A stretch of 64,000 bases of DNA from an uncultured archaeon (GCA_964458565.1 CAYWJO010000003.1:78675-142674), one strand, 5' to 3'. Shown: positions 4,881-44,300, counted from the first letter of the stretch. A program made the numbers and translations. Notes: generated by a model from the sequence alone, not told the origin.

Positions 4881-6085
4881 TCTAGCTTTGCATTAAGCTG
4901 GTTCAATATATCAGCAATTGCACTATCTCGTTCATGCGTCTTAAACCATTCACGATAAAGGATGGCGACAGCATTCTTGGTTAATAGATCGATATCTCTT
5001 ACTCCATATTCCTCTATATTTGATTGGACCGGGAATTTTACATAGTAACCCTCATTATCGTCCCCCACATACTTTCGAAACATTCGATCTCTAGCTACCC
5101 ACCACCATACTATTTGCGGGGTCTCATCAAATGAATGTAGTCGACACAGAATGCTATCAATAGCTCGCAGTTCATGGGTCCATGTTTCAATATACGCACT
5201 TTCACTAAGTCCACTTAATCGAAGGAAGATTCGTGGATTATCATACACTCTGTACGCTCCAATCTCAGCCTTATCAAGGATGACTCGAGCAGTTTCTACA
5301 CCAGGAATTTTTGATTGTTTTCTACATAACCAAACAGCTTCTCGGATCAGAGGGACTTTGAAATCATCAGATGCTGCGTTTGATGTAGCTAACATCCCTA
5401 GAAGCGTTGAAAGGATGAAGAGTAAGGAAAGTGAGAATGCGAAGATGGGAGTAACGAGGGGAATAAATTGAGTGTCAATTTGTATCGCATAGAGTGGCAA
5501 GGTAATCTGACCAAGAAGGATAAGCAGCGGAGCATAAAAGAGCCAAAAATAACCATTCGGAGCTAATCTCACATATTCACGAAGGTACCTGCGTTCCAGT
5601 TTTGAAACTTCTTCGATATCCATCTGAAACGGTTTGTATTCCCAATCGGGTGCGTGATAGATAATCTGGCCCTTTGCGTGGCTACCGATTATAATTCCAA
5701 CAAAAGCGATGATTAATGGGAGTCCCAAGTATATTGTCAAAATCAGAAAGATGTTATCGGAATTACTTGGAAAAATCCAATCTGACATCAAATATCCAAT
5801 GGGTATCAGAGTAGCGGTAAGTATGAAACTAAGAATCTTGTGAATTTTAATGGATTTGTATATTACTGGCTCCACCATCATCTTGTATCGCTCACATTTC
5901 TGGATTGGCACACGCTCTTTAAGGATTGCTGAGAGAACTAAGATTGAAACGACCCCAATCTTTATTAACAAATTTTCCAATATTAAATTCACAATTGTTA
6001 ATAATTTTGGAGAGATATTAGTGATAAAAATTGGAGATAAAGCACCAGATTTCAAGACAATTACAGAGAATGGAGAGAAATTCAA
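4877..6085 (-). CDS. polytopic membrane protein, unknown function (alternative start at 5882)
   Basis: 402-aa ORF with many TM helices. The track start at 6085 overlaps the Bcp gene on the opposite strand. An internal ATG-ATG (MMVEP) at 5882 would remove that overlap. Confidence 0.45.
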   Translation of the reverse strand: MNFSPFSVIVLKSGALSPIFITNISPKLLTIVNLILENLLIKIGVVSILVLSAILKERVPIQKCERYKMMVEPVIYKSIKIHKILSFILTATLIPIGYLMSDWIFPSNSDNIFLILTIYLGLPLIIAFVGIIIGSHAKGQIIYHAPDWEYKPFQMDIEEVSKLERRYLREYVRLAPNGYFWLFYAPLLILLGQITLPLYAIQIDTQFIPLVTPIFAFSLSLLFILSTLLGMLATSNAASDDFKVPLIREAVWLCRKQSKIPGVETARVILDKAEIGAYRVYDNPRIFLRLSGLSESAYIETWTHELRAIDSILCRLHSFDETPQIVWWWVARDRMFRKYVGDDNEGYYVKFPVQSNIEEYGVRDIDLLTKNAVAILYREWFKTHERDSAIADILNQLNAKLE

Positions 6086-6506
6086 ACTCAGTGACTATCG
6101 AGGCAAGAAAGTCCTCCTTTATTGGTATGTGAAAGATAACACAACCGGATGCCAAGCTCAGTCATGTTCACTCCGTGATAACTACAAAGTTTTTGTTGAC
6201 AATGATACTGTGGTTTTTGGTATTGCACCAGGAACTCAGAAAACACATCAATCATTCAAAGAAAAGAATAATCTTCCCTTCCCTCTTTTGATGGATGAAA
6301 ACAATGAGATTGCTAAACTCTATGATATATGGCAGAAAAAGAAGATGTATGGCAAGGAATACATGGGAATTGAGAGAACGACATTTCTGATCGACGAAAA
6401 GGGAAAAATAGCGAAAATCATTGGCAATCATCCAGATGGTGAAGAGAAGGTCCAGACCAAGGAACATGCTGAACAAGTCATCAGGGTCTGGGGTTTGAAA
6501 CTATAG
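6021..6506 (+). CDS. bcp: peroxiredoxin, Bcp/PrxQ type (thioredoxin-dependent peroxidase)
   Basis: Track ORF is 5850..6506, but homology to the adjacent paralog begins at VIKIGDKAPDF. A GTG at 6021 gives a 161-aa product. Thioredoxin-fold Bcp signature T-G-C-x4-C (TGCQAQSC) with peroxidatic and resolving Cys 5 residues apart. Confidence 0.8.
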   Translation: MIKIGDKAPDFKTITENGEKFKLSDYRGKKVLLYWYVKDNTTGCQAQSCSLRDNYKVFVDNDTVVFGIAPGTQKTHQSFKEKNNLPFPLLMDENNEIAKLYDIWQKKKMYGKEYMGIERTTFLIDEKGKIAKIIGNHPDGEEKVQTKEHAEQVIRVWGLKL

Positions 6507-6516
6507 AGGGATTTTT

Positions 6517-6990
6517 ATGCTGAAGATAGGAGATGTAGCACCGGACTTCGAAACATCCGATGAGTCTGGTACTACCTTCAAGCTGAGCAATCACAAGGGA
6601 TCGAAAATTGTTTTGTATTTCTATCCCAAGGATTTTACACCCGGGTGCACTGCAGAAGCATGTTCGATAAGAGATAGTTATCATCTCTTCGAGGGGTCAG
6701 GGATTCCAATCTATGGCATCTCTGGAGGGTCTGCTGAAACACACATGAAGTTTCGAAAGAAATACAATCTTCCATTTCCAATTCTAATGGATGAGGATCT
6801 AGAAATAGCCAAATTATATGACGCCTACAGTAAACTTGACCTCATTGGAATGGGAGTCAAACGTGTTACTTACCTTATCGACGAAACCGGAAAAATCGAA
6901 GCCATCTTTGGTGGTTCAGAAGGTTTAGATAAGGTTCGTTCGAGTGAGCACGCAGATCAAATCTTGGGTCATTGGGGCTTACAAATCTGA
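6517..6990 (+). CDS. bcp: peroxiredoxin, Bcp/PrxQ type
   Basis: 157 aa starting MLKIGDVAPDF, with FTPGCTAEACS (CxxxxC). Paralog of the upstream gene, about 45% identical by eye. Confidence 0.85.
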   Translation: MLKIGDVAPDFETSDESGTTFKLSNHKGSKIVLYFYPKDFTPGCTAEACSIRDSYHLFEGSGIPIYGISGGSAETHMKFRKKYNLPFPILMDEDLEIAKLYDAYSKLDLIGMGVKRVTYLIDETGKIEAIFGGSEGLDKVRSSEHADQILGHWGLQI

Positions 6991-9489: not shown

Positions 9490-11472
9490 TCAGTGAAGTC
9501 TACGCCAGAAGTAAAGGGTCCCGAGCCCTACAGGAATGAGTGTAAATAAGATTAACATTATAATAGTGTTGATCTTCGGATTGTGGTCAGGTCCATCGGG
9601 TTCTAGATCTATATCATTGTCTGGAACCAACGGATCCAAACCCTCTTGGAGCTCTAGCAGGTCTCGTAGTCCATCTTGATCCGTATCATCGTTCAACGCA
9701 TTCATTCCGAGCTGGTACTCCATAAAATCTGGCACACCATCATAATCTCCATCAACAGACCGTGGATCCGAACCATACAGATATTCCTGGATGTTTGTCA
9801 GATTGTCACCATCAAGATCAAGTGCTGAATCATTCAGTAGAGGATTTGTCTGGAATACCACTTCCCACTCATCTAGCATAGAATCCATATCTGTATCATT
9901 CAATCCTGGGTGAGTTCCAATCCGAATCTCTCGCTGGTTCAGGAGACCATCTGCATCTTTGTCCTCTCGAGCATCACGACGAAGGGGTTCAAGCCCATAG
10001 AGGACTTCATTGTTATCGCTCATACCATCTCGATCGGTGTCAGGATGAAACATGTCAGTATCATAAGCGAGTTCATCCATATCGCTCAAACCGTCATGAT
10101 CCCAGTCAAGAGGAGGGTCAGGATCGGGCCAATGGTATTGTTGAGAGTCGAGTATACCGTTTCCATCTGTATCAGAATTATAGAAGAGGTCCAATTCTAG
10201 TTTCACAGTCTCATTCCCTGAGTTTCTTGCATAGATTGCAATTTCTCCAATTCCGGTTGCATTCTCTGCAGTCAATGAAAAGTTATCGTCCTCAATAAGA
10301 GTCAGGGGAATCACTGGCGAGCTGGAATGTGTTATTCTAACAAGAATGCTTTCGTTTTTCGATACTGTACCATTTATTGTAAGTGTTTGTGAAATTGATA
10401 ACACTGCGCGAAGGTAATCAAACTCATTGGGTTGAAGAGTGACATACATTTTCTGATGTGTCGGTTCACCGTTACCCTGCATTGCGAGATATACAGCTGT
10501 AGCTGCCCCAGCTTTTGCAGCAATTAGAGCTTGGGTGTAATTATAATCAGCACTGCCAAGTGCATCTTGAGGTGGAAATTCAGGATCAGGTACCTGACCT
10601 TGATGAACATGAACAGCAGGAATTCCTGCAGCCCAATACTTCCAGTGGTCAGATTGAGTGTAAGCCTCATAAACAGAAGTAGCGATATTTAGTCCACTCT
10701 TCTTCATGAAGCTGACAAAGATGTCACCAAGATACTTGGACCGTTGGTAATTTAGACCTTCATCTATTTTATAGTCTACGTGTATCCTATCGGACTCGTC
10801 TTGGTTGGAGTCATAGAATAGAAGGTCAGCGAAATTATAATTAGCAATAACATCAATGCCTTGCGAATCAAAATAATCAACAATCTCCACAGATCCCCAC
10901 ATTGCCCGTAGACCTGTCAGAGCATCAAGTATCACCCAACTCCCTTGGTAAAAGCAATAGTAAATGTCAATCGGTAACCTGAACTGCGATACAGCTTCAG
11001 CAATTGTTGTCACAACTCCACATCCTATTGAATTAGAGTTAATTTGAGGACCTATGCTTTCTCTAGTATCTAAATTTGCTCCGAAGACAATTGCTCTGCT
11101 GTCGTTTCCATATCCTGGCTGATATGCAACTATAGATTCATGGTTACCAAAATATGCTGCAGTTAGACCCATTCCTTCAAGCTGTTCAATAAGATAATCT
11201 CCAGCCGCATAATAATCTGAGCTTGGACCATACCGATTAGGGAAGGAAGCCACCATGCTGAACGGAGTAAGCAAATCTCCAATGTCAATTGAATCCCATG
11301 CGATATCCCACCAGTTGAGATTGTTCAACGATGAATAATTGATATTTGTTCCACCAGTTCCCCCACCATTGTCATCAGTATCAGGGGGAAAAATTGATGG
11401 ATATAGCAACCAGAGTGCTCCTGATGCGACAACAATAATTAAAGCAATTGCAGCTAACCTTCGTCGATTCAT
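9490..11472 (-). CDS. membrane-anchored protein with M28-peptidase-like domain (probably non-catalytic) and a C-terminal array of DxDxDG calcium-binding (TSP3/dockerin-like) repeats
   Basis: 660 aa with an N-terminal signal anchor and a C-terminal TM helix (LILFTLIPVGLGTLYFW). The M28-like scaffold shows motifs WG[A/S][E/V]E and SDHWKYW. About 7 repeats of DxDxDG-h-x-D-x-x-E. Tandem paralog of 11594..13603. Confidence 0.6.
   Translation of the reverse strand: MNRRRLAAIALIIVVASGALWLLYPSIFPPDTDDNGGGTGGTNINYSSLNNLNWWDIAWDSIDIGDLLTPFSMVASFPNRYGPSSDYYAAGDYLIEQLEGMGLTAAYFGNHESIVAYQPGYGNDSRAIVFGANLDTRESIGPQINSNSIGCGVVTTIAEAVSQFRLPIDIYYCFYQGSWVILDALTGLRAMWGSVEIVDYFDSQGIDVIANYNFADLLFYDSNQDESDRIHVDYKIDEGLNYQRSKYLGDIFVSFMKKSGLNIATSVYEAYTQSDHWKYWAAGIPAVHVHQGQVPDPEFPPQDALGSADYNYTQALIAAKAGAATAVYLAMQGNGEPTHQKMYVTLQPNEFDYLRAVLSISQTLTINGTVSKNESILVRITHSSSPVIPLTLIEDDNFSLTAENATGIGEIAIYARNSGNETVKLELDLFYNSDTDGNGILDSQQYHWPDPDPPLDWDHDGLSDMDELAYDTDMFHPDTDRDGMSDNNEVLYGLEPLRRDAREDKDADGLLNQREIRIGTHPGLNDTDMDSMLDEWEVVFQTNPLLNDSALDLDGDNLTNIQEYLYGSDPRSVDGDYDGVPDFMEYQLGMNALNDDTDQDGLRDLLELQEGLDPLVPDNDIDLEPDGPDHNPKINTIIMLILFTLIPVGLGTLYFWRRLH
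9671..10140. repeat. copy A of an about 460-bp identical tract shared by the two tandem paralogs (copy B at 11779..12245)
   Basis: Direct reading of both regions shows base-for-base identity. The plus-strand shadow ORFs 9910..10200 and 12017..12358 translate to the same 72 aa. The offset between copies is 2108 bp. Confidence 0.85.
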
Positions 11473-11593
11473 TTGAAAGAGTCCTCAATGGTGGTTTTCG
11501 CTAAGAATGTCCGATAGTGACTCACATAAATATGCGCCGAAAGGAGCACAAGTTTCATTGATAATACTTCCTTTTTTCCAAGCAAAAATTCTT

Positions 11594-13603
11594 CTATTGT
11601 CGAACACGGCGCCAGAAAATAAAGGTGCCAATACTCACAGGTACTAACGAAACCAGAACCAGAACTAGTAGTGTATTGACTCTTGGATTATGATCAAATC
11701 CATCGATTTCGAAATCAATGTCAGAATCCGCAACTAGAGGGTCTAACCCTTCCTGTAATTCGATAAGGTCTCTTAATCCATCTTGATCCGTATCATCGTT
11801 CAACGCATTCATTCCGAGCTGGTACTCCATAAAATCTGGCACACCATCATAATCTCCATCAACAGACCGTGGATCCGAACCATACAGATATTCCTGGATG
11901 TTTGTCAGATTGTCACCATCAAGATCAAGTGCTGAATCATTCAGTAGAGGATTTGTCTGGAATACCACTTCCCACTCATCTAGCATAGAATCCATATCTG
12001 TATCATTCAATCCTGGGTGAGTTCCAATCCGAATCTCTCGCTGGTTCAGGAGACCATCTGCATCTTTGTCCTCTCGAGCATCACGACGAAGGGGTTCAAG
12101 CCCATAGAGGACTTCATTGTTATCGCTCATACCATCTCGATCGGTGTCAGGATGAAACATGTCAGTATCATAAGCGAGTTCATCCATATCGCTCAAACCG
12201 TCATGATCCCAGTCAAGAGGAGGGTCAGGATCAGGCCAATGATATTGCTCAGAGTCGGATATTCCATTTCCATCAAGATCAGATTCGTAGAAGACATTAA
12301 GTCTAAGTTGTACAGCATCATTACCCTGATTGATCACTTTAATCAGAAGAGGACCTAGTGTTACGTTGATTGAGCTACCAAGTGTGAAGTTTATGTCCGT
12401 GATCAATGTTGAGTTAAGAATCATGGTTCCGGATTGGGAAATCTGTACATACACACTCTGGTTATCTGAAACAATTCCCTCTAATCTCAACCGCTGGGGA
12501 ATCGATGTTACCATACGGAGAATCTCAACATCTCCAGCGTCCATATCATAATACATCTTTTGTCGAGAGATTTCACCATTACCTTTCATACCCAGATAAA
12601 CTGCAGTTGCAGCAGCTGCCTTTGCAGCGATGATAGCTTGAGTATAGTTATAGTTGGGGGTACCAAATGAATCTACGACCGTGAAATCTTCATCACGTAT
12701 CTGTCCCTCATGTATATACAACGCAGGATATCCAGAGTCCCAGAACTTCCAATGATCAGATTGTGAGAACTCGTTTTGAACTGCAGTAGCTATATTCAGA
12801 CCGGATTTTTTCATAAAAGATACAAAGATGTCAGCGATGTATTTTGTCTCATAGTAACCATGTGTGGCAAGGTTTCGATAATCTACATGAATTCTATCCT
12901 CTTCGTTCTGTAGCGGATCTCTAAACAACATCTCAGCAAAATTAAAGGACGCAATAACGTCTATCTGCTCCTCCTGAAAATAAGTCGTGATTTCTTCTGC
13001 ACCCCATAATCCTCGGATGATATTATTGAAGTCGGCACCTTCTATAACCCAGCTACCTTGATAGAAACAATAGTAGACATCAACAGGTAATCTGAATTGT
13101 GAGATTGAAGATGCTATTGCTGTCACAACACTGCATCCAATCGCATTCCGATTGATTTGAGGACCACCTGACTGCTGTGTATCTATATGAGCTCCAAAGA
13201 CAATGGCTCTGCTATCATTAGCATAACCAGGTTGAAATGCAACAACAGATTCGTAATTACCAAAGTAAGATACTATCAGACCCATTCCTTGTAAGCGGTC
13301 AATAAGATATTCACTAGATTCATAAAAATCAGAAGATAGACCATAACGATTAGGATAGGCTGCAACTGCCACAAGGGGATCAAATATATCACCATATTCG
13401 ATGAAGTCCCAAGCCATATCCCACCAATTGAGATTATTAAGATCAGAATAGTTCACAGTTCGCTCATTTTCATTTTCACTGTCTTTATCGAGGTCATCAG
13501 ATAGTAGATTTGGATAGAATACCCAGAATGTTGCTGTAGACACTATAACAACGATTGCGACGATGGAAAACAATCTTCGACGGTTCAATATACTAGACCT
13601 CAA
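11594..13603 (-). CDS. membrane-anchored protein with M28-peptidase-like domain and DxDxDG calcium-binding repeat array (paralog of the downstream gene)
   Basis: 669 aa. GAHIDT (HxD), WGAEE and SDHWKFW match M28 metal-ligand motifs. The GxDDxSG motif is replaced by NAIGCS. C-terminal about 215 aa is identical to the paralog. Ends in a C-terminal TM helix. Confidence 0.6.
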   Translation of the reverse strand: MRSSILNRRRLFSIVAIVVIVSTATFWVFYPNLLSDDLDKDSENENERTVNYSDLNNLNWWDMAWDFIEYGDIFDPLVAVAAYPNRYGLSSDFYESSEYLIDRLQGMGLIVSYFGNYESVVAFQPGYANDSRAIVFGAHIDTQQSGGPQINRNAIGCSVVTAIASSISQFRLPVDVYYCFYQGSWVIEGADFNNIIRGLWGAEEITTYFQEEQIDVIASFNFAEMLFRDPLQNEEDRIHVDYRNLATHGYYETKYIADIFVSFMKKSGLNIATAVQNEFSQSDHWKFWDSGYPALYIHEGQIRDEDFTVVDSFGTPNYNYTQAIIAAKAAAATAVYLGMKGNGEISRQKMYYDMDAGDVEILRMVTSIPQRLRLEGIVSDNQSVYVQISQSGTMILNSTLITDINFTLGSSINVTLGPLLIKVINQGNDAVQLRLNVFYESDLDGNGISDSEQYHWPDPDPPLDWDHDGLSDMDELAYDTDMFHPDTDRDGMSDNNEVLYGLEPLRRDAREDKDADGLLNQREIRIGTHPGLNDTDMDSMLDEWEVVFQTNPLLNDSALDLDGDNLTNIQEYLYGSDPRSVDGDYDGVPDFMEYQLGMNALNDDTDQDGLRDLIELQEGLDPLVADSDIDFEIDGFDHNPRVNTLLVLVLVSLVPVSIGTFIFWRRVRQ
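11779..12245. repeat. copy B of the about 460-bp identical tract
   Basis: See copy A. Identity breaks at the 5' side (protein C-terminal flank) near 11779 and at about 12236 (gggccaatggtattg versus aggccaatgatattg). Confidence 0.85.
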
Positions 13604-13706
13604 CTTTCAGTGGAAATGAATCAGATTGGTCAGGAATTGCATAAATATGAGCTGAACAGCGTAACATTACAAAATCACTAATTCTAGGAATGTGAAAAAA
13701 AGTGCG

Positions 13707-16253: not shown

Positions 16254-16808
16254 TCAATAATAAGTCCGTTTTGGCTTGGATAAGTTATGTTTCCGGACCT
16301 TTCTCCCAAAGATAAGTCCTGCAGTAGTAGCAATCAAGCCTCCCAATACGCCAGGGATAATTATTGGTAGAGTATCTGGACCGACACCACCCGCCATACT
16401 TGCACCAACAAACGCAATAACAATCGCAAGCGGACCTAGAAGGCCGCAATAGCAAGCAGCTTCATATTCCCCGGTTTTTTGAGAATATATGTCATGCCCA
16501 TATGCATCCTTTGCATAGATTGGAACCATGGTTCCTCTGTAAGCAAATATCGCTGCAGCTATAAAGAAGACTCCGAATACACCACCAATTAAAGCGAGAA
16601 TGCTGTTTTGATAGAACATGAGAGATATGCCAACTTCAGCGAAGCCAATTATTCCCGCTATCCCAAATAAATTTCCAGCAGTTCGAGATGTTACACCCAA
16701 TACTAATGCCTCCTTAATTACGAATAGCAATTGTGTCAGTAGCAGAGCCTTGATATCTACTTTATCATTTTTATTTTGTGTGAAGATTGGAAGAATACTT
16801 TCAGTCAT
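16254..16808 (-). CDS. small polytopic membrane protein
   Basis: 184 aa, Gly/Ala-rich, with 4-5 hydrophobic helices. Confidence 0.45.
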   Translation of the reverse strand: MTESILPIFTQNKNDKVDIKALLLTQLLFVIKEALVLGVTSRTAGNLFGIAGIIGFAEVGISLMFYQNSILALIGGVFGVFFIAAAIFAYRGTMVPIYAKDAYGHDIYSQKTGEYEAACYCGLLGPLAIVIAFVGASMAGGVGPDTLPIIIPGVLGGLIATTAGLIFGRKVRKHNLSKPKRTYY

Positions 16809-29373: not shown

Positions 29374-32300
29374 CTACTTCTTGCCTGTGAGACTCTTCAC
29401 AAATTCATCAACCAGCTCACGTGAGAGATGCTCGGCTTGCTCCATGATAGTATCGATCTCGTGAGGTGGCACACCCTTCTCCTCGAGTTCTTTTCTCAAC
29501 TCTGCTAGTTCAAAGGGACTGAGTTTCTCATCAGGGCTAGCAGGTCGTTCTGGTAAGTAGTCCTCAGGTCGTTTATCAGCCATCCGTTTTGCTTCGGGTT
29601 CAGCTTTCATGATAGTGGATTCCATCTCTTCGTCCACATCGATCGGCTCATCGAAGTCGATTGGTGGTTTCTTAGGTCGGTCCTCATCAACAAGGAAGAT
29701 TGAGTCTTCTTCAGGACCTCGATAGTCGACTCTTGGGACCTCACCCTCTTCAACTCCTGCAACCGTTCTTGAGGCCTGATCTGCAACCTCCTCGAGTACC
29801 TTCTCAACACTCTTACCATCACGTCGTGCTGCTCTGATTGCTTCCTGATAGATGACTTCTTTCACGAAAGCAGCCTGCTCACTCAACCTCATCTTGGAGA
29901 TGTCAGCCTTGAACTCGTCAAGCTCATCAGGGCTCAGATGAGTAAGAATAGAGAGCTGTACGAGTAACTCACCCATCTCTGGCACTGCAACTATAACAGA
30001 TTCTGATGGCAGCTGGTCTGGTCTTCGAGTGATTTTGACCTGTTCAAAGGTATCATTGAATAGCTCAGCAATCAGTTGATCTCGCCTTTTAGCCTCATCA
30101 ATAGGCTTTGGAACCTTACCTTTGCCTAGAGCTTTAATCTGTCCATTGATCTGACGAAGTCTCTTTGGTACGCTTAGCACTCTCACGTACAAAGCACCAA
30201 GCAATAGTAGAATGAATACTATTGGAGTTCCATATGATGTGACAGTGGTCAGTGTGTCTTGAAATTCTGTGGGAGTTATTCCAACCAATAATTCGATATC
30301 ACCATCAACATGGTTAACGCGATAGATTCTAATATCAATAACAGAAGACACATCAGGAAGACCAATCGGAAAAAGAACAGGAGCTTCAATTGTTAGTCTG
30401 TAAATTCCATTTCCAATTTCTTCCCAAGATGTGACATTTACAACTTCGGGATTTGATGATATGACCTTAATATAAGCCCCAGTTATTCCATCGCCAACAT
30501 GACCGGGCCATGCATCATAGAATCTTAGCTCTACCGTAGTCGGTACAGCATAATTAATATTGATTCTATCCTCACTGTCCACATTGTTTGATGTAAAGGC
30601 AGTATCTGTGGGGACATCTATAATCGTGATGAATATGGTGATAATAGATTGAGTTCTGTTCGCAGTTCTGAGAGGGATTGTAAATCGATATCTAGCATCA
30701 TCAACTCTGAAAAGACTCGTATCAAAGGTGAAACTGTAGTTACCATTTCCGAGCTCAATAATGTCAAGAGGACTTGTATCATATACAGGATGATAGTATC
30801 TAGCATAATCAACCTCATCCAAGGTCCAATTGGCTCCTTCAACCCCTCCAATAAATGGTGTGTCCCATGGAGCAACTGTGGCATTATAAAATAATATCAC
30901 TGTGATAGAATCACCAAATGGCACCACAAGCTGAGTGGCATCCATACTGGAGTTACTGTACTTTGGCGGATAAACAACAATCTCCGTTGGAATGGATCTT
31001 ACCCTCACCCGAACTGTTCTAGGAATATAATCATAATTATCCTTTCTAAAGTCTACAGTTAGGGAATACTCTTCAGTACTTGGTTCGACAAGAGTGCTGT
31101 CAATGAAAATACCATATGTTCCATTCCCAAATGGCGTCGCATTGAATTTCCTATTCGCCCACTGGTATGTAACAGTTGCATTGATAACAAGTGATTCATG
31201 ATCCTCATCAACAAAATTGAAACCATAAGTTCCATTTCCACCCCAAAATATTGCGGGTATTTCTGGTGCTTCAACCAAGGTATGAATTGCTCTGATACTA
31301 AGGGTTGTTGTTGTGCTATTCGATGTGTATTCCTTGTTGAGTGGAACAGCAGATATTCTCAATGTATAGGTCTGTGCTGGATATTGACTGGTATCGATAG
31401 AGACATTGTAGTATCCCCAATAATTTGCTCCAAAAACTGACCGATTTAAGAGATATAGCGGATATGGTGTTCCTTCACCGATCAGGCTCATTGTTACAGT
31501 TGCATCATTTCTCCAATGTTCGTCAGGATTCTCTGTTTCATTGATATAAGGTGCATATACCCACACACCCACCTCAACAATCTGAGACCAATAGAAGTTC
31601 TCATCAGCAATGCTTTGTGAATTAATATCAAGCTGAACAACAGTCATAGTCTGTTTTACAACGAGAGTCATGATGATTGGTGAGATGAGATAGTTGTTCT
31701 TTGATGCTTCAATGACCAGAGTATACGTTCTAGAAGCCTCTGCATCATCAGTATCGAGGATAAAGGAATAGTTGCCTCCGGTTTCCTGCGTGAAGTATTC
31801 AGATTGCTCGCTACCAAAATCCCAAGTAATTAGTACATTTGCATCAATTACTCCTTCACCAGCATAGGGAGAGTCACTCACTTCTAGATTCACTCGGATA
31901 GTCACTTCAGAACCCCTAGTTGTATCAAGAGTGAAATCATCACCTGATGGATTAATACTCACAGGAATTTGGAGTATTGTCAATGTGACTGATTTTGTCT
32001 GAGTTATGTGATTCTCATAACTAGCAATTATCTGGATGGCATAGGTTCCGTGAGGTACTAGTTGTGTATCTAAGGAGAATGTGAAATTACCAGGAACTCC
32101 TGTAGCTATGAGGGGGATGTCTGAACCTAGAATCCAGCTATAGGTCAAATCACCAGCTAGGACTGGTCTACTGTGTACAGTATCATAATAGACAGCTGTA
32201 ATCGTCACTTCGTCTCTCCAGTAAACAGAAATACTAGAATCTGAAAGAGTAAGGTCGGTCTCTACTTGTTTAATTTCTATGTCGAAGTATACAGCAGAGA

Positions 32301-35300
32301 TTGAATAGCTGGACAGAGATAACACAATTTTGAGTATCTTTACACCATAGGGAATCGAAGTTGTCTGGAATGTAATGTTATAGAAACCACCAGAAATAGG
32401 TGTAACGTCAGATACACTCAACCATGTAACTGTACTACTTGCACCATCCACGAGAACATTCGCATCTGTGTCATTCAACCAAACCAGAATATAACCTTCA
32501 TCTCCAGCAAACCTGGATTTTGTTGATGATACTTCTTGAATACTCGCTTGACGCAAACGGACTTGGAAGGATACCTGTGATTCTGCCTCGTCATATGGAT
32601 ATAGGTTGAATGTAATTACAAGACTTTTGAGACCTGCAGCTCCCGCATCTAAAGTGTTCACAGTAATAAGATACTGACCATCAAACAGAAATTCAATATC
32701 CCATATGGCAGGTTCAGAGCCACTACTGTAGACAACAGTAATTGATGATGAAACGTCGTTAATATAATGACGAGGATCAGGCAAAGTGTGATCTATATCG
32801 TTTAGAGTAATCGTTATAGACACGTTATCCTTTAGAGGAACTGTAGAAGGTACCGGTGAGTCAGGAGTTATGGATGTGCGAATTCCTCTTACAGATCCAA
32901 CCATTGGTACTCCGGAGATGTCTCTATAGAAGGGTCTCGATGAATCAATCCAATCAAGGTTAAGACGGAAAGTGAAAATACCAAAACTTCCCAAGAATGT
33001 TGTACTTACATCGATGTAATATTCACCAGGCAATGCTCCAGAATATACCCAGTAATTAGCGCCCCATGTTAGAGTAACTTGGTCACAAGCTAAAGTGATT
33101 TGGGTTAATGGAATGACAATACCGTTCCCGGTTGTATCGTCAGTATAATTGAAAGTGAGCCTCATGAGATCTTGCATTGGAGTGTCAGGAGAAAGACCAA
33201 TCGTGATTCTAGCCACTCGTTTAGTTATTGTAACACTGACAGGGGTGCTGTCACTCGCATAATATGGTGCACCTCCAGACCATGTGACCGTGATCGTTAA
33301 AATACGAGTCAGAGTCGCATTGGCGATCTTTGTTGTATTAATTACTATTCTGAAATAATTGATTTCAGGTGTAATTATATAATTAGACGGACTGAGTAAT
33401 GTACCTCCATTGTATATGATTACATCACCAGAATCAATGATAATATCATTCCCAGTTCCTACATCAGTAAATGCTAATGTGAAGTTGAACAAATCAAGAT
33501 ATTTCGTCTGCTGAGGAGGATCCTTCACATCTACATTAGTAGGTCTTGTCGTTACGGTGATTCGAACACTGATGACAGCTTCGTTGTAGTAGTATGGTGC
33601 ACCGATTTTGTTAGCGAAGACGAAGATCGTATATTGTGCTGGAGCACCTAAAGCAGAAGTATTCAGATTGATCTGATATTCACCTGCCGTTAGAGCATCC
33701 CAAGTATAATACATCAATGCGATAGGTGAACCATTACTGTATTCAAGGCTGATTGATGCACCATCAATTCCAATACTTGCATCAGTGTCAAGGTACAGTA
33801 CAACGAATGGATTGAGAGGTGATTCTGTAATATCATTGTAAGCGGTAGGTTGAGGAGATTCTTCAAGATCTATTGAAGCAATCCTTCCTCTGATTGAGAA
33901 TGCAATGTAAAGTTCATCAGCAGCATAGAATGGCTCAAGATTAACATAAGACATACGAACGTGCAAGGTGTAATTTATTCCACTTCCAAATCCACGTCCT
34001 GCAGTTTCAACCTGCAGTTCATATTTCTGTGAATCCGAATCCCAAGTAATTGAATAAACATAATCAGGTCCGGTGGTGTTGAGGATTTCGAAAGATGTGT
34101 AAAACGTTGTGCCATTCACTATGGTCTGAAGAGTGAGAATATCTTGATAGTCTAATATCACATTCATTATGGTATCAATACCAATCCGCCCAACAGGCTC
34201 ATTCGAAAGTATTGTTGATCGATATCTAACACTAAACTGGCGGATAGACCATGCATCTTCGACATATTCTGAACCCGTATATGTGAAACTAGCATTAAGG
34301 GTAAATAATCCAGGAGTAGCAAAATAGGATGAGTCCAAGTCTATTTCGAATACACCTGAACCCAAGTAATTCACGGAGTAAAATCCTGTTAATGGATAAT
34401 TACCAGAGATGTTAGAGTAGAATAATGCAAAATCACAATCAGAATCTAGAATACCAGTAGTAGTAAGCCCTGCAATGTCTTGATACTCTACTGTGAACAC
34501 TACACTATCACCAAATGGTGTTGGGTCAGGAGATTGAAACTCGACTATCGATGCTCGTAGTGTGACGGTGATTCTGATTGTAATTAATGTTCTATTTGAG
34601 TAGTAAGGCGCACCAGCCCAAGTCACACTCAAAGTGAATGTCTTTTGACCTATCCCACCAAATTGTGCAGTATCGAATTCAATTGTAAATTCTGTCACAC
34701 CAAAGATTTCAGGTGTTTCGAACAAGCTGGTTGAGATATCCATGTGAGTGGGATCGAAGGATATAGCACTCTCTCCACCACCTGACACATCAAGGAATGA
34801 GAAGGTGAATGTAGCGTTTTCGCCATATGCAGTATTGATTGGTGGTGATACTGAAACAAGTGTGTCGCGGGGTATGATGCTAACCTTTGTAGTAGACGAA
34901 TCATCACGATAATAAGGAACAGACCCATCCCAAATGACTTCAACGGTGATTTGTAAGTTGTTTATCAATACTGTACTTAGGGTTACTGAATTGATTGTAA
35001 CCTCAAATGATGTACCTGTTGTACCATTCAAAGTATAATCTACAACCTGAGTAAGCAGAACACCTTGGTCGTAGATTTTGATGTCAGAATCACTAATTTG
35101 CACCTTCTGACCGGTTACTGCATCAGTGAAAGCAAAAATGAATGTCACATCCTCGAGATAATTGGTAGCTGATGGAGCAACAAGTATCTCAACGTTTGAT
35201 GTTCGTTTCACAACTTGTGCTGTTACTGTTAGGTTTGCCATTGCATGATATGGAATACCTGAGTAACTAGCACTTACTTTCAGACTTGTTGCACCCAATC

Positions 35301-38300
35301 CATCCAATGCAGTGGATAATACTGATACGTCGTAGTAACCGGGAGAGCCAGGGGTGACCAAATAGTCAACATCTTGAACCAAGGTCGTTAAGCCTTTATA
35401 GATCGAGACTGTACCGCCAGAGATAGTGGCATCAAGATCCACATCGTAGTAGCGAATCGTGAAATTAACATATTCAAGGTAAGGTGTATCGCTTGGAGAG
35501 ACTGAAAGGTCAAGAGTCGAGTATCGCGCTCTAGTTTCAATATCCGCAACAGTAGTTCGACTACTATAGAATGGTGCAGCATTTTGGTATGATAATTGAA
35601 TTATCAGACTGGTTACATTACCAGGAACCATTGCTGGATGATTATAAGTCTGAACTGTTAGTAAGTAATAATTGTAGGGTGCTCCAAGCCAAGACATGCT
35701 GGAATACCAGGTACCCGGACTCAATATCTGCACTGAAACATCGTGGTCAATGTTGTCTAGAGTCAGGAAGTCCTGATAATAGAGTATAATGTCAACTGAG
35801 GTGTTGTATGCATTTCTTGGAACCGGGTCAGCAGTCAGAAAAGTTGTTCGATACCTAATCTCCAAAAATCTTGATGCTGTAACATCAGGCATGAAGAATG
35901 TATAATTTGTTAGATATACTCGAAGACCAAATGTTCCAGGAGTTGTATAATATGATGCATTGAAATCGACAGAATATTCACCATCTCCAAGAGGTGTGAC
36001 TGAATAGTAGGAGAATGGTATATAGATGGACCCAAGAACATCATAGAGAGTTAGATTCACATTATTATCGATAGGACCACCAGTGCCCGTAACATCTGTC
36101 CAAATCACTGAAAACACAACATTATCACCAAATGGAGTGGGAGAAGGAGTCTGATATTCCACTACAGTTTGCCGCAATGTCAACGTGACTGAGATTTGCC
36201 GCCCATATCGATCAGCGTAGAATGGTGCTCCATCCCAAGTCACACTGAGTGTGAAGGATTTCTTCTCAATAGGTGCAGTGAATTGATTAGTATCAAATGA
36301 TACTGTGAATGTCTTGTCAGTATCATTATAGAACAATGAGAAATCTGCGAGACTGAGTATAATCTCCATTGTTGTTGAATTATAAGCAATCGGAACACTT
36401 CCTGCGCCAGTGACATCATCGTATGTGAATATGAAAGTAGCATTCTCACCATAGGGAGTAGGAGTAGGTGGTGTAACAGAGAGTATTGTGTCTCTTGGAT
36501 TCACACGTACTGCAATCACATCAGTTCTATTAGTGTAATATGGATCTACTCCAGGATTCCAACCAATGTAGACATTCATCAAGATGACGCCTGTGGTTCC
36601 AAATATGGTGTTGTTAAATGAGATAGAGTAATTTCCAGGTTGACCAATAACCTCTGTTATAGTCACCTTTGACAAATCTACCGTATAACTTTGGAATTCT
36701 ATAGATATGAAAACGTTACCACCTGGTGGATTCCCAGATGTTGTATTATCAATCCCAATACCTGTGAAGAAGTCACTGTAAAAGAACGTGTAAGTCATAT
36801 TCTCAAGATAGGGTGTCGGTTCAGCAGTGATTAGTAGAGCATATGCAGATTCTGTACCACCAATATTGACCTGGGTGTTGATAGTCTTATTTTGATAGGT
36901 ATAAACAGGACCAGTCCAGTTGAAGAATATCTTCAGACCAAAGAGACCTGGACCAAATTGATTTGCAGGTACTTTGATTACGTAGTAACCAGGTAGAGTT
37001 CCATTGAATAGGTATGACGTAACTGGTAGTCCATTGATATCTTCTACTCGATGGAGCACATACTTTGATTTGATGCCAACTTGATCATCAAGGTCACCGT
37101 AGAACACATCAATCGTGATATTAGCATTGAAGTAAGTAGGCTCGGGTGCATTAACTGTTCTAAAGTCCGTGTTATGTGTTCTGAGAGAGATTGTAAGATT
37201 GAATAGACCAAATTGATAGTTTGAGCCCTTTGAGAAATTAAAGAGAACAACGACGTTCTGTTGTAGGGGATCATCCACCTCAGTTGGGAGTGTGATTCGA
37301 TATCTACCTTCACCCAAGAGGTATTGCATAATAACAGGACGCCCAAACAGAGTATCCCATCCAGTGTTCAATTCGAAAAGTCCACTATCATCAATAGGCA
37401 AATTATTGTCAATATCCCAATATTCTACATAGAATACAGGATCATTCCCAACAGGGATATCTAATGCACCAACAGTTGGAATTGCATAGGTATACACAAT
37501 TCGGACTAGAATCCGGAAGTTACTCAATGTTCTTGCAGCATGAATAGTTGATTCTGCAGTGAGGTCAAAGTAGTGAATACCCCTATCAAGACCACCAACA
37601 AGAAGTGTTACATTATAGAGTCCGGGGGTACCTGGAAATTCGTAATAAGATATGGAAATACCTGTAGCAGTTATTGTAGCACCAGATATTCCAGCATTTC
37701 GGTCGATATCAGTATAGTTCAGAGTAATCCAGACATCGCTTCCATATGGAGTAATGACTTGCGGATAATTGTCTGAAGATAGGAAGCTCAGAGCCTCACG
37801 ATATTCAAAAATTATTATCAGACTTGTTGAACCGTAGCGAGAGTCTGAAGGAATAACACGAATAGTAATAGAATAAGATCCTTTCTTTTGGAAGAAAGTA
37901 GCAGAGATACTCAAATTATATCTTCCATCAGATAAGAATGAAATTGATGCAGGAAATGTGTATCCTGTCCCGTTTGTTACTGTGAATTCGCCCTGAGTAA
38001 TTCCGTTGATAGGTGCACCATTATATTGGTTCCCGTCCTCACTTACATTGAAACGGATGATTATTTGGAAATCATCATCAATTGGGTAAATCAGATCTGT
38101 TGGCTCGTTGTAAAGATAGGTTTTCAGACTGTGAATGACAATATCAAAAACATAGTTCCCTGGATGGCCATATATTCCACTCATCGTCATTGATAGTGTT
38201 ACAGTTTCAGTCCCTACATTCCAGATGTTTGTTGGAAGTACTAAGTCTAGTTGAGTATTTGAGGGAGAGTAAGGTGCATACCCAGAACTAAACGTGAATC

Positions 38301-41300
38301 CAGCAACAGAGCTATTATCGAGTTGAGCACCTGTATCTAAATCAGTTATTACAATTGTGAGTGGTGTATCATTACCATATGGACTCACTAAATCACCAAT
38401 CACAGTAATTGCAGTGTAATGAGTTCGTATTATGATTGAGAAGCTATAATCATCTGGACTCTCATAGATTCCTGTCATATCCAATCCAAGTGTAACGGGA
38501 TGAGATGCAACAGACCATGTGTCTGTAGCGAGTAGTACATCAAGATCAAAGATTCCAGGGGAGGTTTCATTATGGTTCCCCGTAGCCCAAACAAATCCAA
38601 ATGATCCAACATCCGAATAATCTAAGATAGATACAGTATCAAGATCTGTTAGTAGGATAGTAACTGCAGTTGTATAGCCATATGCTGTGACAAAGTCACC
38701 TTGAACAGTCATAGCAGTGTGATGCTTTCGAATAGTGATCGTGAAATCATAATCAGTAGGATCATAATACTCGCTACTGCCAACCATTGTGACACTGAGA
38801 GTGACTATTTCATCTCCAATACTCCAGAGATTTGTGGGCAAGTTAACATCAAGATCACTTGGCGTTACCTCACTATATGGTGAAGGAATAGATGTGAAGT
38901 TGAAATAATAGACTGAGGTATGAGTTAATTCGGATGCTGTATCCAAGTCAACAATGACAATTATTAATGGAGTGTTGAAACCAAATGGAGTGAGAAGGTC
39001 TCCATCAACGCTGAGAGACGTGTAGTGCTTTCGTATAGTCACAGCGAAATCATAATCATCAGGACTACTGTAGATATTATTCATAGTCAAGGTCAAGGTC
39101 ACTGTATCAGAACCAATTACCCAATCATCTGTTGTAAGAGTGTAATTGAGATTTGTTATACCTGAGCTTTTTCCTTCAAATTCCGAAGACGATGTAAATG
39201 TGAACGAACTGACGAATGTATGATCAAGATTAGTACCTGTATCGAGATCAACAAGGACTATGGTAACATGAGTGACTTCCCCATAAGGTGTAATAAAATC
39301 ACCCTGTACTGACATAGCTGTGTGATGTTTTCTGACTAAAATCTCAAAACTGTAGTCAGTTGGATTGAAATAGTCACTATCCATGATAACGCTAAGCACC
39401 ACAGTTTCAGGTCCCAGGGTCCAATCATCAGTTGTTAATGTAAAATCAAGACTGCTGATTCCGGGTTGATTATCACCCTCAACTTCCCAGGAAGTGAAAG
39501 TGAATGATTCGATCTCATTTTGAGTGAGTAACAAGCCTGTATCAACATCCGTAAGGACGATTGTTACATCTGTGGTAAACCCGTAAGGTACCAGGAAATC
39601 AGCCTGGACTCCAACAACAGTGTAGTGTTTTCTTATTGTAACCACGAAATCATAATCGGAAGGACTTTCATAGTCACCAGACATAGACAGACTTAGTGTA
39701 ACCGACACCTGACTAACGGACCAACTATCAGTGTCAAGTGAGTGATTGAGAGTTGATGGAGAACCTGGATCTGAACCATAACTTGACAGGAATGAATAAC
39801 TACTCACGAAGGTATCATCCAACTGAGTACCAGTATCAGTATCAGTCAAAACAATAGTTAGATTTGTATCATAACCAAACGGTGTGACCAAATCCCCTTG
39901 TATGTTTGTTGATGTGTAGTGTTTCCGAATCTCAACATTGAATTGATAGATATCTGGAGCAGCGAATATTGGATTAGACATTTTAATTGTAAGATTGACA
40001 ATCCGTGTCATCACTGGCCAACTACTAGTATCTAAAGTCACATCCCAACTTGTTGCTTGCTCAAACTGAGAGCCACCACTCCAATTGAATGTATAATTAC
40101 CGACATTACCAAGTGCTACAGATGCTCCGGTATCCAAATCTATGATGCTGATTGTGAGAGGTGATGTACTACCAAACGGTTGAATGAAATCTCCAGAAAC
40201 CGAAGCAGACGTGTAATGACCTCTAATTGTGACATTAAATACAAAATTATCAGGTGAGTCATATGATGAGCTATCCACAACAGCGAATGTGGTGACCGTT
40301 CTAAGCCCCACAGGCCATGGACTTGTATCTAAAACAAAATCAAATGTTGAAGTAGCACTTGGATTCGCATCCTGATAACCCCCTGTCCATTGGAAACGTA
40401 CTAATGTAACATCGTCAGTTGCAAGCTCAGTACCTGTATCAGTGTCTAAAACAATGATCCTGACATCTGTGTCAAGTCCATGTGCAGTTGTGAAATCCCC
40501 TGTAATCATAAGGGCTGTGTAGTGCACACGAATCTGGACATCAAATTGATAATCATCTGGAATAGCATAATTTGGATTTGAAAAGCTGACTGAAAGGGTG
40601 ACAGTTTCAGCGCCAACAAGCCAACTACTGGTGATAAGGGTGACATAATTATTTCCAGGTGTCGTAACATCCTGAGTGCCATAGGAAGATGTGAAACTCA
40701 ATTGACTAACATTGAGTATTCCAATATCATCACCCGTATCAAGATCAATTATCTTTACATTGATGGGAGTATTAACTCCGAAAGGTGTTGTCAATCCTCC
40801 ACTTACAGACACTGCAGTATAATGAGTCCGAATAGTTACATCAAATGAATAATCAGTTGGATTAGAGTAGTTAACATGACTCATTAAAAGTGACAATGTG
40901 ACTACTCTGGTACTAACACTCCAGTCAGATGTGTCCAATAAAACATTCAACGAACTACCATCAAATGGTTGTGAATCACCAAACCATGAAAGTATGAAGG
41001 AATCAACATAGGTTTCATCCAACTCTATACCGAGATCAGTATCAATTACTACAACAGTGAGATTAGTTTCTAATCCATATGGTGTTATGGTATTACCAAC
41101 AATTGATGCTGTGGTGTAATGTTTTCTGAGAATGAAAGTGATTTCTGTGTAACCTTGCTCCAAGAAGAAACCAGATTTGGTGGCATTGAACGCAAATATG
41201 TGTTCGCCAAGATTGAGACCTGAAGTGGATACTGAGATATTATATTTTCCACCGCCCTGTGCTTCAACGGTAACAGGACTACCATCTGAGAGCGTTATTG

Positions 41301-44300
41301 TCGCACCCGTTATGGGTAGGCCTGTATATGCATTGGTAAAGACCAGAGTAGCCTTGAAGTCAAATCCAACTGGTGTAGTGGAAACATTGAGGTAGGTCAA
41401 TGAAGTATGATGATAGAGTTGTAGGTCAAAATGAGTAGTGGCATCATTATAGTATGGGTGTGATGATTGTATATCTATCCTCCAAGAAGTTGCAGTTCCT
41501 AGATCAGAAGTATTGACTGCAATTCCGTAATATCCTGTGCCATAATCGTTGAACGTTTTCGCTGTTGGTGAACCTGAAACCGTCCAATTCATTGAAACAG
41601 TCGCACCAGTGATACTCTGGGAGTTCACATCGTCATCGAGATAGACCTCTACGTAGAGCAAGTCTCCAGCAAATCTGAGTGAGACCTGATCGCTGACAGC
41701 ATCACCAGGAGAAACAAGAGTTAGAGATGAATCATGTTTCACTAGAAACTCACGTTCATAGAGGCCTGTCTTATCACTAACAGATGCGCCCGTATCATTA
41801 TAGTATACTGAAACAGTCCAAATCCCAGCTGGTGCTGTTGAATCAATTGTCTTGGTGACTGAGTGTTCTGGAGAAGTACGTGTTTGTTGAGATCCTCTCT
41901 GAACAAATGTGGTCGGTGCAAACATATTCTTGTATTCGGTGGAAATCCATCCACTTACACGTTGGACACCTGCTATTCGGACCTCATCTATTTTTCCTGT
42001 GTGATAAGCCTCACCTGCTGAAACCTCTGAGGGGTCTAAATACCCACCACCAATACCCCAATCAGTTGTGAAAGCTAGATTTAGAGAGCTTGCACCAGTA
42101 TGGACTGTTGTGCTCGTGTCATCAACTCCGTTTATGAAAATCTTATTATTTGAAGGAGCGTCAGCATCCATATAGCATGTATAGTAATACCATCCAGATG
42201 ACCAAGATGTAGTAGTTGTGTATTTAGTGTATTCTGAGCCACCAACCTCAAATCCAAATGCCAGACTACCAGGAGAGTTTGTGGATTCGGAATAGTCAGC
42301 GCCTATCAGCATGATATGGAAGTTGTCATCACCATCCAAGTACTTCGACATCAGGAGTCTTGAGGGACTAGAAGTTGAACCCCACGAATCTGCTATGTAA
42401 AACCATCCAGAAAGTGTTAGATCACCACTTAGGTCTAGACCTTCTGAAGCAGCGATAGATATCCAGTCATTACCATCAAAGTCCTGACCATAACTATGAC
42501 CATCTCTCATCCCTACTGTCCTGTCTGTACCATTTCCAGTTCCAGTATAATTGCCAATTGTTGAGTCATAGAAGGCATTACCAAATGTTTCGTCTGTATA
42601 ATCTTCTGAGAGATGCCATACTGCATCATAATTATTAGTCCAGACCTCCGTGGGCTGCTCAGTTGGACCAATCACAGGATTCCCGTAGTACATATACAGG
42701 GTGTTGCTAAGTGTACTGGTTAGATTCGCTTTCACCCAAGCTACAAGTGCACCAGAATCATATCGCTCAATTTCGTGAGACAATACTTTGCCAATACTGT
42801 CTGTGAAGACAATATCATCACCATCAGACTGGGCACGAGTTCCTAAATCCGTATCAGAGAAACTCACCATAACTGGGAAGTTTGTCACATCTGCATCAAC
42901 CTGAGATGCGAGGATAGTTAGGACTTTTCGATATTGAAACGATGGGACATGCCATGTTGTACCGGGGGTACCAGATGTTGCGGAGGTTTCATACCAGACT
43001 GTATCAGTAGGATCTGATAGTACGAAACCAACCTTTGCATTTTCAATCCATGGAGTTGTTGCTCTGAACTGAGCCACATCATTGATATCAAATATAGCAG
43101 TATCTGACAGGCTCTGCCCATTGATTCCTAATTGGACGTTTTGAACATAATTCCAGCTCTGGAACTTAATCTCCCAAACGCCCCAAATGTCAACCGCAGA
43201 TGAGAATATAGTGAGCTTTCCACCAGTATAATCCCAATCTGTACCTTCAATCTTTGCTTGACCAATAGGATTAGTCACCGAGGTGGGAATCCACTCAGTA
43301 ATTGGATAGTTAACGACAAAGTCCATTGAATCAGTTAAAGCAGGAGGAGAAACAAGGATATTAGCTGTCCAATCAACCAAACTCGAATTGGTCACGAAGA
43401 AGGAAGTTCCTTCTTGCATATTCTCATCAAGAGACGAACCAGTTCCTATGAAGTCCATGCTGAGTGTGATACCAACATCAATCGGGCTAGTCGAGCTTGT
43501 TGAAATCAGGAATTGCACCTGTTCGTCAGCGGACCAACCTACGGTGTTTGTATTCTCGGAACCAACAGAGTAGAATGTATCAGGACTATATTGATTATTG
43601 AATTCGGTTTCTATCCAACTTGTTGATAGAAACATTGTCGTCATTCTGAGCTCATCAATTGTCCCATTAAAGAATCGATCCAATACCGGATTATTTTCAT
43701 CAATCATTTGCCAATTTCCAATAGTAAAGTTCAATGTAGAATCTTCAGGAGTGACTCCATTCTTTGTATCTGTTTGAATAAGACTTCCATCAACATATAT
43801 ATTCGATTCAGCAGTGGCAGCACTCCATGTCCACACTAAATGATGCCAGTTCTGTACGGTCACGCCGCCTGCATCAACTGAAGTAGCTGTACTATAATCT
43901 GTGCTGTATCTTATTCTGAAGTTGGTTCCTTGAACAGCAAAGTGAATTATCGCATCAACTGGATTAGTATTAGGGGCTTTTGAGAAGATTCGATCGTCAT
44001 CTGTGTCATTATGAAATATCCATGCACTGATGGAGAAACTTGACCAATCGTCTGTAGCAATTTGTCCAACACTTAATACATCATCATCACCATCGAAATT
44101 GAGACCATAACCCACCTGCCCAGCAACAACATCATTAGAAGACATTGAACCATTCGAAAATCCATCATGGTTGTTCCATGTACTATCAAAGATTGTGCCA
44201 CTGGGATTATCGTCCATATGTTGAACCATCTCGTAATTATTCCATATATTGGTGGAATCCAAATCAACTGAAGATCCACAATAATGCATTCTGATTACAG

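Follow-up and report, generated by a model that had tools for sequence, protein, structure and literature searches.

A tandem pair of archaeal M28-fold membrane proteins with predicted calcium-loop stalks lacks the aminopeptidase active-site residues

Introduction

What is the role of proteins that carry an aminopeptidase fold next to a long array of acidic, calcium-loop-like repeats, with a hydrophobic helix at either end? This question is raised by two adjacent minus-strand genes, here called geneA (9490..11472) and geneB (11594..13588), in a stretch of 64 000 nucleotides from an uncultured Asgard archaeon of the Thorarchaeota (GCA_964458565.1, CAYWJO010000003.1:78675-142674; hereafter the window). 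The usual database name of the family to which their products belong, given by automatic annotation at NCBI, is 'M28 family peptidase'. We find that zinc-binding and catalytic residues of the M28-fold head have been lost and that the head is followed by a calcium-loop stalk, and we therefore think it most likely that the two proteins serve in binding or as structural elements rather than as peptidases.

If taken literally, the peptidase label of a gene that essentially every Thorarchaeota genome contains would inflate inventories of extracellular peptidases. Asgard archaea are believed to live closely associated with other microbes, yet very little is to our knowledge known about their cell surface, and a conserved, fast-evolving and recurrently duplicated surface protein on a calcium stalk would be a candidate for contact of Asgard cells with other cells or with ligands. 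In the literature we found nothing on this family or on thrombospondin type-3 (TSP3) repeats in Asgard archaea. What is added here is an apparent pseudo-aminopeptidase occurring phylum-wide, its sister group with an intact site, recurrent tandem duplication, and gene conversion that seems limited to the stalk.

Results and discussion

An M28 fold without the M28 zinc site

Both proteins begin with a transmembrane (TM) anchor, continue with an M28-fold domain and then a beta-jelly-roll, and end with an array of calcium-loop repeats and a TM helix. A first-pass annotation made from the sequence alone had proposed such a series (a signal anchor, an M28-like domain, a middle part rich in beta structure, acidic 12-residue loops in an array and a TM segment at the C-terminus), and this was borne out by open reading frames (ORFs), AlphaFold2 (AF2) modelling, Foldseek and hidden Markov model (HMM) searches. 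The AF2 model of the geneB product, made with 35 homologues and with residues numbered from a start at 13603, had a mean predicted local distance difference test score (pLDDT) of 88.2 and a predicted template modelling score of 0.76. It contained a TM helix at residues 8-29 with a further helix at 31-34; residues 54-338 formed an alpha/beta domain and 346-439 a beta sandwich of eight strands. Next came about 190 residues with a short helix each 22-26 residues, these helices lying at 450-617, and then a C-terminal TM helix at 640-668.

When this model was compared with the PDB using Foldseek, the best match was the Aeromonas/Vibrio proteolyticus aminopeptidase (AAP; 1amp; E 8.6e-18, target TM-score 0.76), followed by Legionella LapA and LapB, the Streptomyces griseus aminopeptidase and glutaminyl cyclases, so that structure prediction recovered the M28 fold that had been suggested. 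A family profile also matched LapA and AAP in the PDB by sequence, with E 3e-9 to 1e-6. The proposed likeness to Pfam Peptidase_M28 (PF04389) held for geneB (29.3 bits against a cut-off of 21.3 bits) and for 31 of 35 family members, but not for geneA taken alone, which gave no match at E<=1. The M28-fold domain, as assigned by profile, Foldseek and alignments, spans 10462..11337 of geneA (aa 46-337) and, with Pfam and AF2 in addition, 12578..13444 of geneB, both on the minus strand, as are all features of the two genes given below.

The active site was mapped in AAP numbering by means of HMMER and MAFFT alignments of 35 family sequences, and independently onto relatives having an intact site. 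Motifs that lie near the active site without being metal ligands are conserved (H-x-D99, N at 118, S/T-D229-H230 and D260) and hence anchor the alignment to AAP. The zinc ligands retained are 0/5 in geneA and 1/5 (H97) in geneB. At H97 itself, 30 of the 35 family members have His, as does geneB, while geneA has Asn. The bridging ligand D117 is an Asp in one family member only, the residue mostly being Gln, with Ser in geneA and Arg in geneB. D179 is kept as Asp or Glu in 31/35 and is Ala in both window proteins, and H256, a His in 1/35, is Phe in both. The general base E151 and the adjoining zinc ligand E152 are not conserved in the family, which instead has an insertion of about 10 residues, and both glutamates are lost in geneA and geneB; the E151 position holds a gap or variable residues in both alignments and E152 is kept in 2/35, whereas EE is found in 12/13 of the sister-group proteins described below.

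Judged from these alignments, the family is without the co-catalytic zinc site and the general-base glutamate of M28 enzymes, the loss of D117, E151, E152 and H256 being family-wide and ancient, and the M28 head is most likely catalytically dead in both geneA and geneB. This loss is newly recognised here, as is the gene-conversion tract considered further on.

Relatives with an intact site

With a word-indexed search, 37 homologues covering the full length (about 655 aa) were obtained, and all of those having a source name came from Thorarchaeota metagenome-assembled genomes (MAGs). A profile of the head and jelly-roll, searched against 1.84 billion representatives, retrieved a second tier of relatives (E 1e-38 to 1e-27), which belong to MAGs of Thorarchaeota and Lokiarchaeota and have a signal peptide, M28 domain, jelly-roll, TSP3 repeats and, at the C-terminus, a TM helix with a basic tail. 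The full H-D-D-E-E-D-H set is kept in 12/13 relatives of the same architecture. A third, Loki-associated group (P0108, P0117 and P0120) is degenerate in its own manner. The combination of M28 domain and repeats, thought unusual in the first-pass annotation, proved to be widespread, dozens of proteins from Thorarchaeota and Lokiarchaeota having M28, jelly-roll, TSP3 and TM parts together.

The intact-site proteins, such as TFG07411.1 (P0084) and MBD3407434.1 (P0085), are like the window proteins in having the four-part architecture, at about 615 aa, but differ in their full H-D-D-E-E-D-H set, short signal-peptide-like N-termini and fewer repeats, in having neither the NxLNWWD nor the D-x-NP-[RK]-[IV]-N motif, and in their genomic location. 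Invariant in the family of the window proteins are NxLNWWD, R86, GYGNDSR, N153, D283 and G341-N342. The uncharged run at the N-terminus is 17-23 aa long in 35/35 family members, as compared to 9-17 aa in most active-type relatives, where it resembles a signal peptide. What sets the family apart, as read from its sequences, is lost catalysis and this longer, TM-like N-terminal hydrophobic run, and not the fusion of M28 with TSP3. One genome can carry both types, as seen in the MAG TEKIR_12S, where the intact-site P0084 is found on SDNO01000109.1 (locus L039) and a dead syntenic gene on SDNO01000043.1 (L026). The neighbourhood of P0084 in that MAG, with DUF2070, flavoprotein and HD-associated genes, is unrelated to that of the dead copy. 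Intact-site and apparently dead paralogues of one architecture would constitute a natural experiment on the passage from enzyme to binding module.

The best-known enzymes of this fold, the secreted leucyl aminopeptidases of AAP/LapA type (1amp; Legionella LapA, 6esl), share the alpha/beta fold and the non-ligand motifs H-x-D, S/T-D-H and D260 with the window proteins, and in their precursors a PPC-like beta domain follows the catalytic domain, as it does here. In the window proteins, however, of the five zinc ligands four (geneB) or all (geneA) are gone together with Glu151, the insertion of about 10 residues replaces EE, and a TSP3 stalk with TM anchors at both ends is found instead of secretion.

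The jelly-roll, at 10180..10461 of geneA (aa 338-431) and 12281..12577 of geneB (from the AF2 model), is a beta-sandwich fold of the PPC or protease C-terminal type, for which the structural likenesses listed were the ColG/ColH collagen-binding domains, the furin P domain and GOLD domains. It is rich in N-x-S/T sequons, with 3.6 observed versus 1.3 expected. The N-terminal hydrophobic anchor, recognised from the sequence in geneA (11389..11460, aa 5-28), corresponds in geneB (13502..13582) to AF2 helices 8-29 and 31-34. The C-terminal TM helix lies at 9505..9567 in geneA (aa 636-656), preceded by a D-x-N-P-[RK]-[IV]-N motif and followed by an RRLH tail, and at 11612..11674 in geneB, where sequence and AF2 agree and the tail reads RRVRQ. 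From the TM helices at both ends, together with the sequon enrichment of the jelly-roll, we infer an extracellular location. The C-terminus has the tripartite shape of a sorting signal (D-x-NP-[RK]-[IV]-N, TM and RR), but no NCBIfam model for archaeosortase/exosortase signals of the PGF-CTERM or PEF-CTERM type matched at E<=1, and that reading was set aside. An ending of the NPRIN-TM-RR type was found on no other ORF of the window.

A stalk of thrombospondin type-3 loops

The loop array covers 9574..10173 in geneA (aa 434-633) and 11681..12280 in geneB. Seven repeats had been reported initially; we count eight full ones in geneA, starting at residues 434, 456, 478, 504, 526, 552, 574 and 596 with a spacing of 22 or 26, and a ninth, variant loop at residue 618 directly ahead of the membrane helix. 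Each unit consists of a 12-residue D-x-D-x-D-G-h-x-D-x-x-E loop and a helix of 6-7 residues, and the repeats are far beyond chance. Their spacing agrees with a 12-residue calcium loop, as proposed, and similarity to both M28 and calcium loops was found. Loop positions 1, 3, 5, 9 and 12 are 91-100% conserved, mostly 100%, among 35 homologues having an overall identity of 37-66%, which is the pattern expected of functional metal ligands, and Ca2+ binding is predicted. The segment contains 28% Asp+Glu and no Cys.

EF-hands, dockerins and thrombospondin type-3 loops had all been named as possible likenesses of these repeats, and it was the last that found support. Pfam TSP3_bac (PF18884) matched the repeat region alone with 26 bits against a cut-off of 25 bits, in three stretches, while the whole geneA and geneB proteins scored 18-19 bits; it matched 32/35 family members, with a best E of 2.9e-23. 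The NCBIfam thrombospondin-3 models MtsD (E 8e-11 to 2e-10) and CglD (about E 1e-6) matched as well. A dockerin assignment was rejected, as Dockerin_1 (PF00404) matched neither the whole proteins at E<=1, nor the repeat region at E<=10, nor any of the 35 family members, and eight to nine loops over 200 aa contrast with the single pair, of about 70 aa, of a dockerin. An EF-hand assignment was likewise rejected: the 12-residue loop pattern fits, but DSSP gave no entering helix and no Pfam EF-hand model matched the whole proteins, nor the repeat region at E<=10. Matches to lanmodulin and oncomodulin in phmmer searches were insignificant (E 0.12-0.24), and no similar solved structure was found for the repeat segment.

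Bacterial TSP3 surface proteins, among them Myxococcus MtsD and CglD and OmpA-like TSP3 proteins, resemble the stalk in their Cys-free 22-residue DxDxDGxxDxxE repeats; the NCBIfam model names refer to cell-cell cohesion for MtsD and to a gliding-motility adhesin for CglD. Those proteins differ in being bacterial, in their other globular domains and in their anchoring, and have the repeat module alone in common with the stalk.

A 456-nt identical tract and the history of the gene pair

Within the stalk, positions 9670..10125 of geneA and 11777..12232 of geneB are 100% identical, with zero differences over 456 nt or 152 codons, covering repeats 2-8. The identity falls sharply to about 55-70% in the flanks, and the boundaries are in register. 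At the protein level, the repeat regions of geneA and geneB are 96% identical to each other and 76-78% identical to that of P0003, a homologue in the MAG GCA_016840225.1 (L005), so that homogenisation must have come after the split from that genome. The tract points to gene conversion that is recent and restricted to the stalk, which would represent concerted evolution of the repeat module while the heads diverge. Stalk homogenisation as a general feature of the family was rejected, since the longest identical run in two other tandem pairs was <=26 nt (L016) and <=14 nt (L031). The plus-strand antisense ORFs 9910..10200 and 12017..12358 open with 72 identical residues because both lie in the tract; there is no evidence that they are genes.

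As whole proteins, geneA and geneB are 66% identical. Outside the tract, synonymous sites are saturated and the non-synonymous divergence (dN) in the M28 domain is 0.30, implying an old duplication with purifying selection on both copies, neither of which is a pseudogene.

A scan using one genome per GTDB species gave 33 loci, in genomes labelled Thorarchaeota or Promethearchaeota or in MAGs labelled merely as uncultured archaea. In nearly all of them the gene lies between a divergent pair of CCG/4Fe-4S and FAD-binding oxidase genes and a convergent malic-enzyme gene. Rather than an operon, this conserved neighbourhood seems to be a series of unrelated genes kept collinear throughout the phylum. 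A deduction of function from operon structure was rejected, the neighbours being unrelated housekeeping genes in divergent or convergent orientation, and the context therefore holds no functional clue. Between species, the head is 26-45% identical, compared with 80-90% for the malic enzyme and mostly 69-79% for the AAA_22 gene; by this sequence comparison the head is fast-evolving.

Most genomes have one copy at the locus, with a single match by pattern scan in a closed chromosome of 3.16 Mb (L022). Tandem pairs were seen in the window, in GCA_016840225.1, where the beginning of a second copy comes after P0003 in the same gene order, and at L016 and L031. That MAG, the most closely related one, has no CCG/FAD oxidase pair between AAA_22 and the tandem M28-like genes, a local rearrangement in a gene order otherwise kept phylum-wide. 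Further tandem pairs are probable in the MAGs HM4_FB6 (L013/L038) and C14-20 (L020/L037), where contigs end in or near the gene and its halves are on separate contigs; such splitting is what near-identical tandem tracts would be expected to give in short-read assembly. A neighbour-joining distance tree without support values placed each tandem pair inside its own clade, which indicates at least three lineage-specific tandem duplications.

Proposed function and its alternatives

We propose, with a probability of roughly 0.6, that the two products are non-catalytic, glycosylated M28-fold surface heads on a Ca2+-stiffened stalk, serving in binding or adhesion. The proteins would be extracellular, with the C-terminal TM helix as their tether to the archaeal membrane and, probably, a second tether in an N-terminal anchor that stays uncleaved. 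Each loop would chelate Ca2+, whereby the acidic segment, otherwise floppy, could stiffen to a spacer that holds the head off the membrane, and the M28-fold head, no longer cleaving peptides, would together with the PPC-like jelly-roll make up a unit of recognition, binding or adhesion. In the tandem copies, the diverged heads may recognise different things, with the stalks kept uniform by recent gene conversion.

Such re-use of the M28 fold for binding would be analogous to that in the transferrin receptor and nicastrin, which like nicalin are membrane-anchored proteins with degenerate M28-fold ectodomains that bind rather than cleave. The comparison is one of analogy only, as the window proteins have no PA domain and no specific similarity to these three, which were absent from the PDB profile matches at E<=0.01 and from the Foldseek top 50, the latter being all AAP-type enzymes and glutaminyl cyclases. 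A relationship to nicastrin or the transferrin receptor was accordingly rejected, there being none among the sequence or fold matches examined.

Two observations weigh against a binding role. Most family members, geneA and geneB not being among them, keep H97 and D179, the Zn2 pair of AAP, and a single metal site with some chemistry is conceivable in the wider family beyond these two proteins. The genomic neighbours, moreover, give no hint of function. More tentatively, the head might, throughout Thorarchaeota, be a true receptor or adhesin that arose from a surface aminopeptidase through lost catalysis, that repeated tandem duplication has diversified, and that is used in partner-cell contact or in the capture of peptides or proteins, with the Ca2+-loaded TSP3 stalk as a spacer that sets the length and can be switched by calcium; if so, it would be an independent archaeal counterpart of the route taken by the transferrin receptor and nicastrin.

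A different possibility is that the dead head pairs with an intact-site M28-TSP3 paralogue, or with the sister copy, and regulates or positions it, a role that many dead paralogues have towards their active relatives. Active- and dead-type proteins of one architecture do occur in one MAG, and the TSP3 stalk and C-terminal anchor are common to both types; AAP-type M28 enzymes are monomers, however, and the gene for the active paralogue has another location with unrelated neighbours, which makes such a partnership doubtful in our view. That the proteins are working zinc aminopeptidases on the cell surface, trimming extracellular peptides for uptake, we consider quite improbable. It would suit the M28 fold, the Pfam M28 score of geneB above the cut-off, the relatives with the same architecture and an intact site, and the presence in the window of a gene for a peptide-type SBP_bac_5 protein (61368..63263), Thorarchaeota being generally regarded as peptide fermenters. 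The SBP_bac_5 gene is nevertheless about 50 kb away, and a peptidase would have to operate with 0/5 metal ligands in geneA or 1/5 in geneB and with Glu151 lost in both, these losses being family-wide.

The annotation made at the outset had suggested that dockerin-like repeats serve in docking, possibly onto the giant neighbours; on such a reading they would plug the protein onto these in the manner of a cellulosome. The 12-residue loops with a short helix after them and the 22-residue period do recall dockerins, and in this genome as in other Thorarchaeota, giant Laminin_G_3 proteins are encoded at a distance of 5-20 kb. Against docking stand the TSP3_bac matches in place of any to Dockerin_1, the eight to nine loops where a pair would be expected, and the protein having membrane anchors of its own. 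The cohesin-like partner that had been envisaged was found in neither giant, the search having covered these two proteins and not the rest of the genome; the giants contain Laminin_G_3 and DUF2341 modules only, without cohesin or TSP3 modules. At least three unrelated genes (CCG, FAD-binding and AAA_22) also intervene, joined by GcvH and Rad51-like genes before the larger giant, in a region that is collinear phylum-wide, and we regard docking as very improbable indeed. As for the 456-nt tract, or even the tandem arrangement itself, it might be thought to be an artefact of MAG assembly, as the contig (157 849 bp) is derived from a metagenome, assemblers typically have difficulty with exact repeats only 2.1 kb apart or less, and the pairs at L016 and L031 show no such tract. 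This seems unlikely, given that in the independent MAG GCA_016840225.1 two copies likewise stand in tandem and in this order, that tandem pairs exist in other lineages too, that the reading frames are intact and the tract, with its sharp in-register boundaries, runs in frame over whole repeats, and that the geneA product (P0002) has been recorded by two sources, NCBI and JGI.

Gene starts, upstream regions and neighbouring genes

The downstream copy, geneA, is a minus-strand ORF of 660 aa with an ATG start, and its product is 100% identical to the database protein P0002, on record at both NCBI and JGI. The upstream copy, geneB, encodes 664 aa from a TTG at 13588, and its product is 100% identical to P0001 (664 aa, an NCBI gene call). 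The TTG at 13603, which is the start of geneB in the ORF list, is probably unused, and the true start is almost certainly that at 13588, because the homologues all begin M-x-R-R-K there, P0001 agrees, and the TTG at 13603 falls within a GAGG motif. A ribosome-binding-like GAGG motif is located 8-14 nt before the start codons of geneA and geneB (13588).

Both upstream regions share a TATA-like box, CATATTTATG, as a putative promoter element, at 11525..11534 for geneA (53-62 nt upstream of its ATG) and at 13640..13649 for geneB (52-61 nt upstream of the TTG at 13588). The promoter region would therefore have been part of the duplication, and the upstream regions suggest that geneA and geneB are probably separate transcription units.

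The giant minus-strand ORFs of the window lie at 18041..27619 (3192 aa, Laminin_G_3) and 29374..46173 (5599 aa, DUF2341), and both close with GVPxHEIxTIMEQAxxLxRxLVxExxKS as a tail motif. At the corresponding place, a single giant gene is present in other Thorarchaeota genomes; the gene of 3192 aa is extra here, as is a 184-aa membrane ORF at 16254..16808. The SBP_bac_5 protein at 61368..63263 (minus strand; E 4e-61, oligopeptide type) carries a linker rich in Ser/Thr as well as a TM anchor at its C-terminus, and is thus a further membrane-tethered surface protein. At 63337..63897, also on the minus strand, there is a 186-aa ORF without a Pfam match, having a His/Asp-rich N-terminus (HDVDSHPDHDHDVHHDVEHDIDFDHG) that may bind metal. 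Finally, the plus strand carries tandem AhpC/TSA peroxiredoxin genes at 5850..6506 and 6517..6990, a pair that is also present in the syntenic region of other Thorarchaeota (loci L002 and L004).

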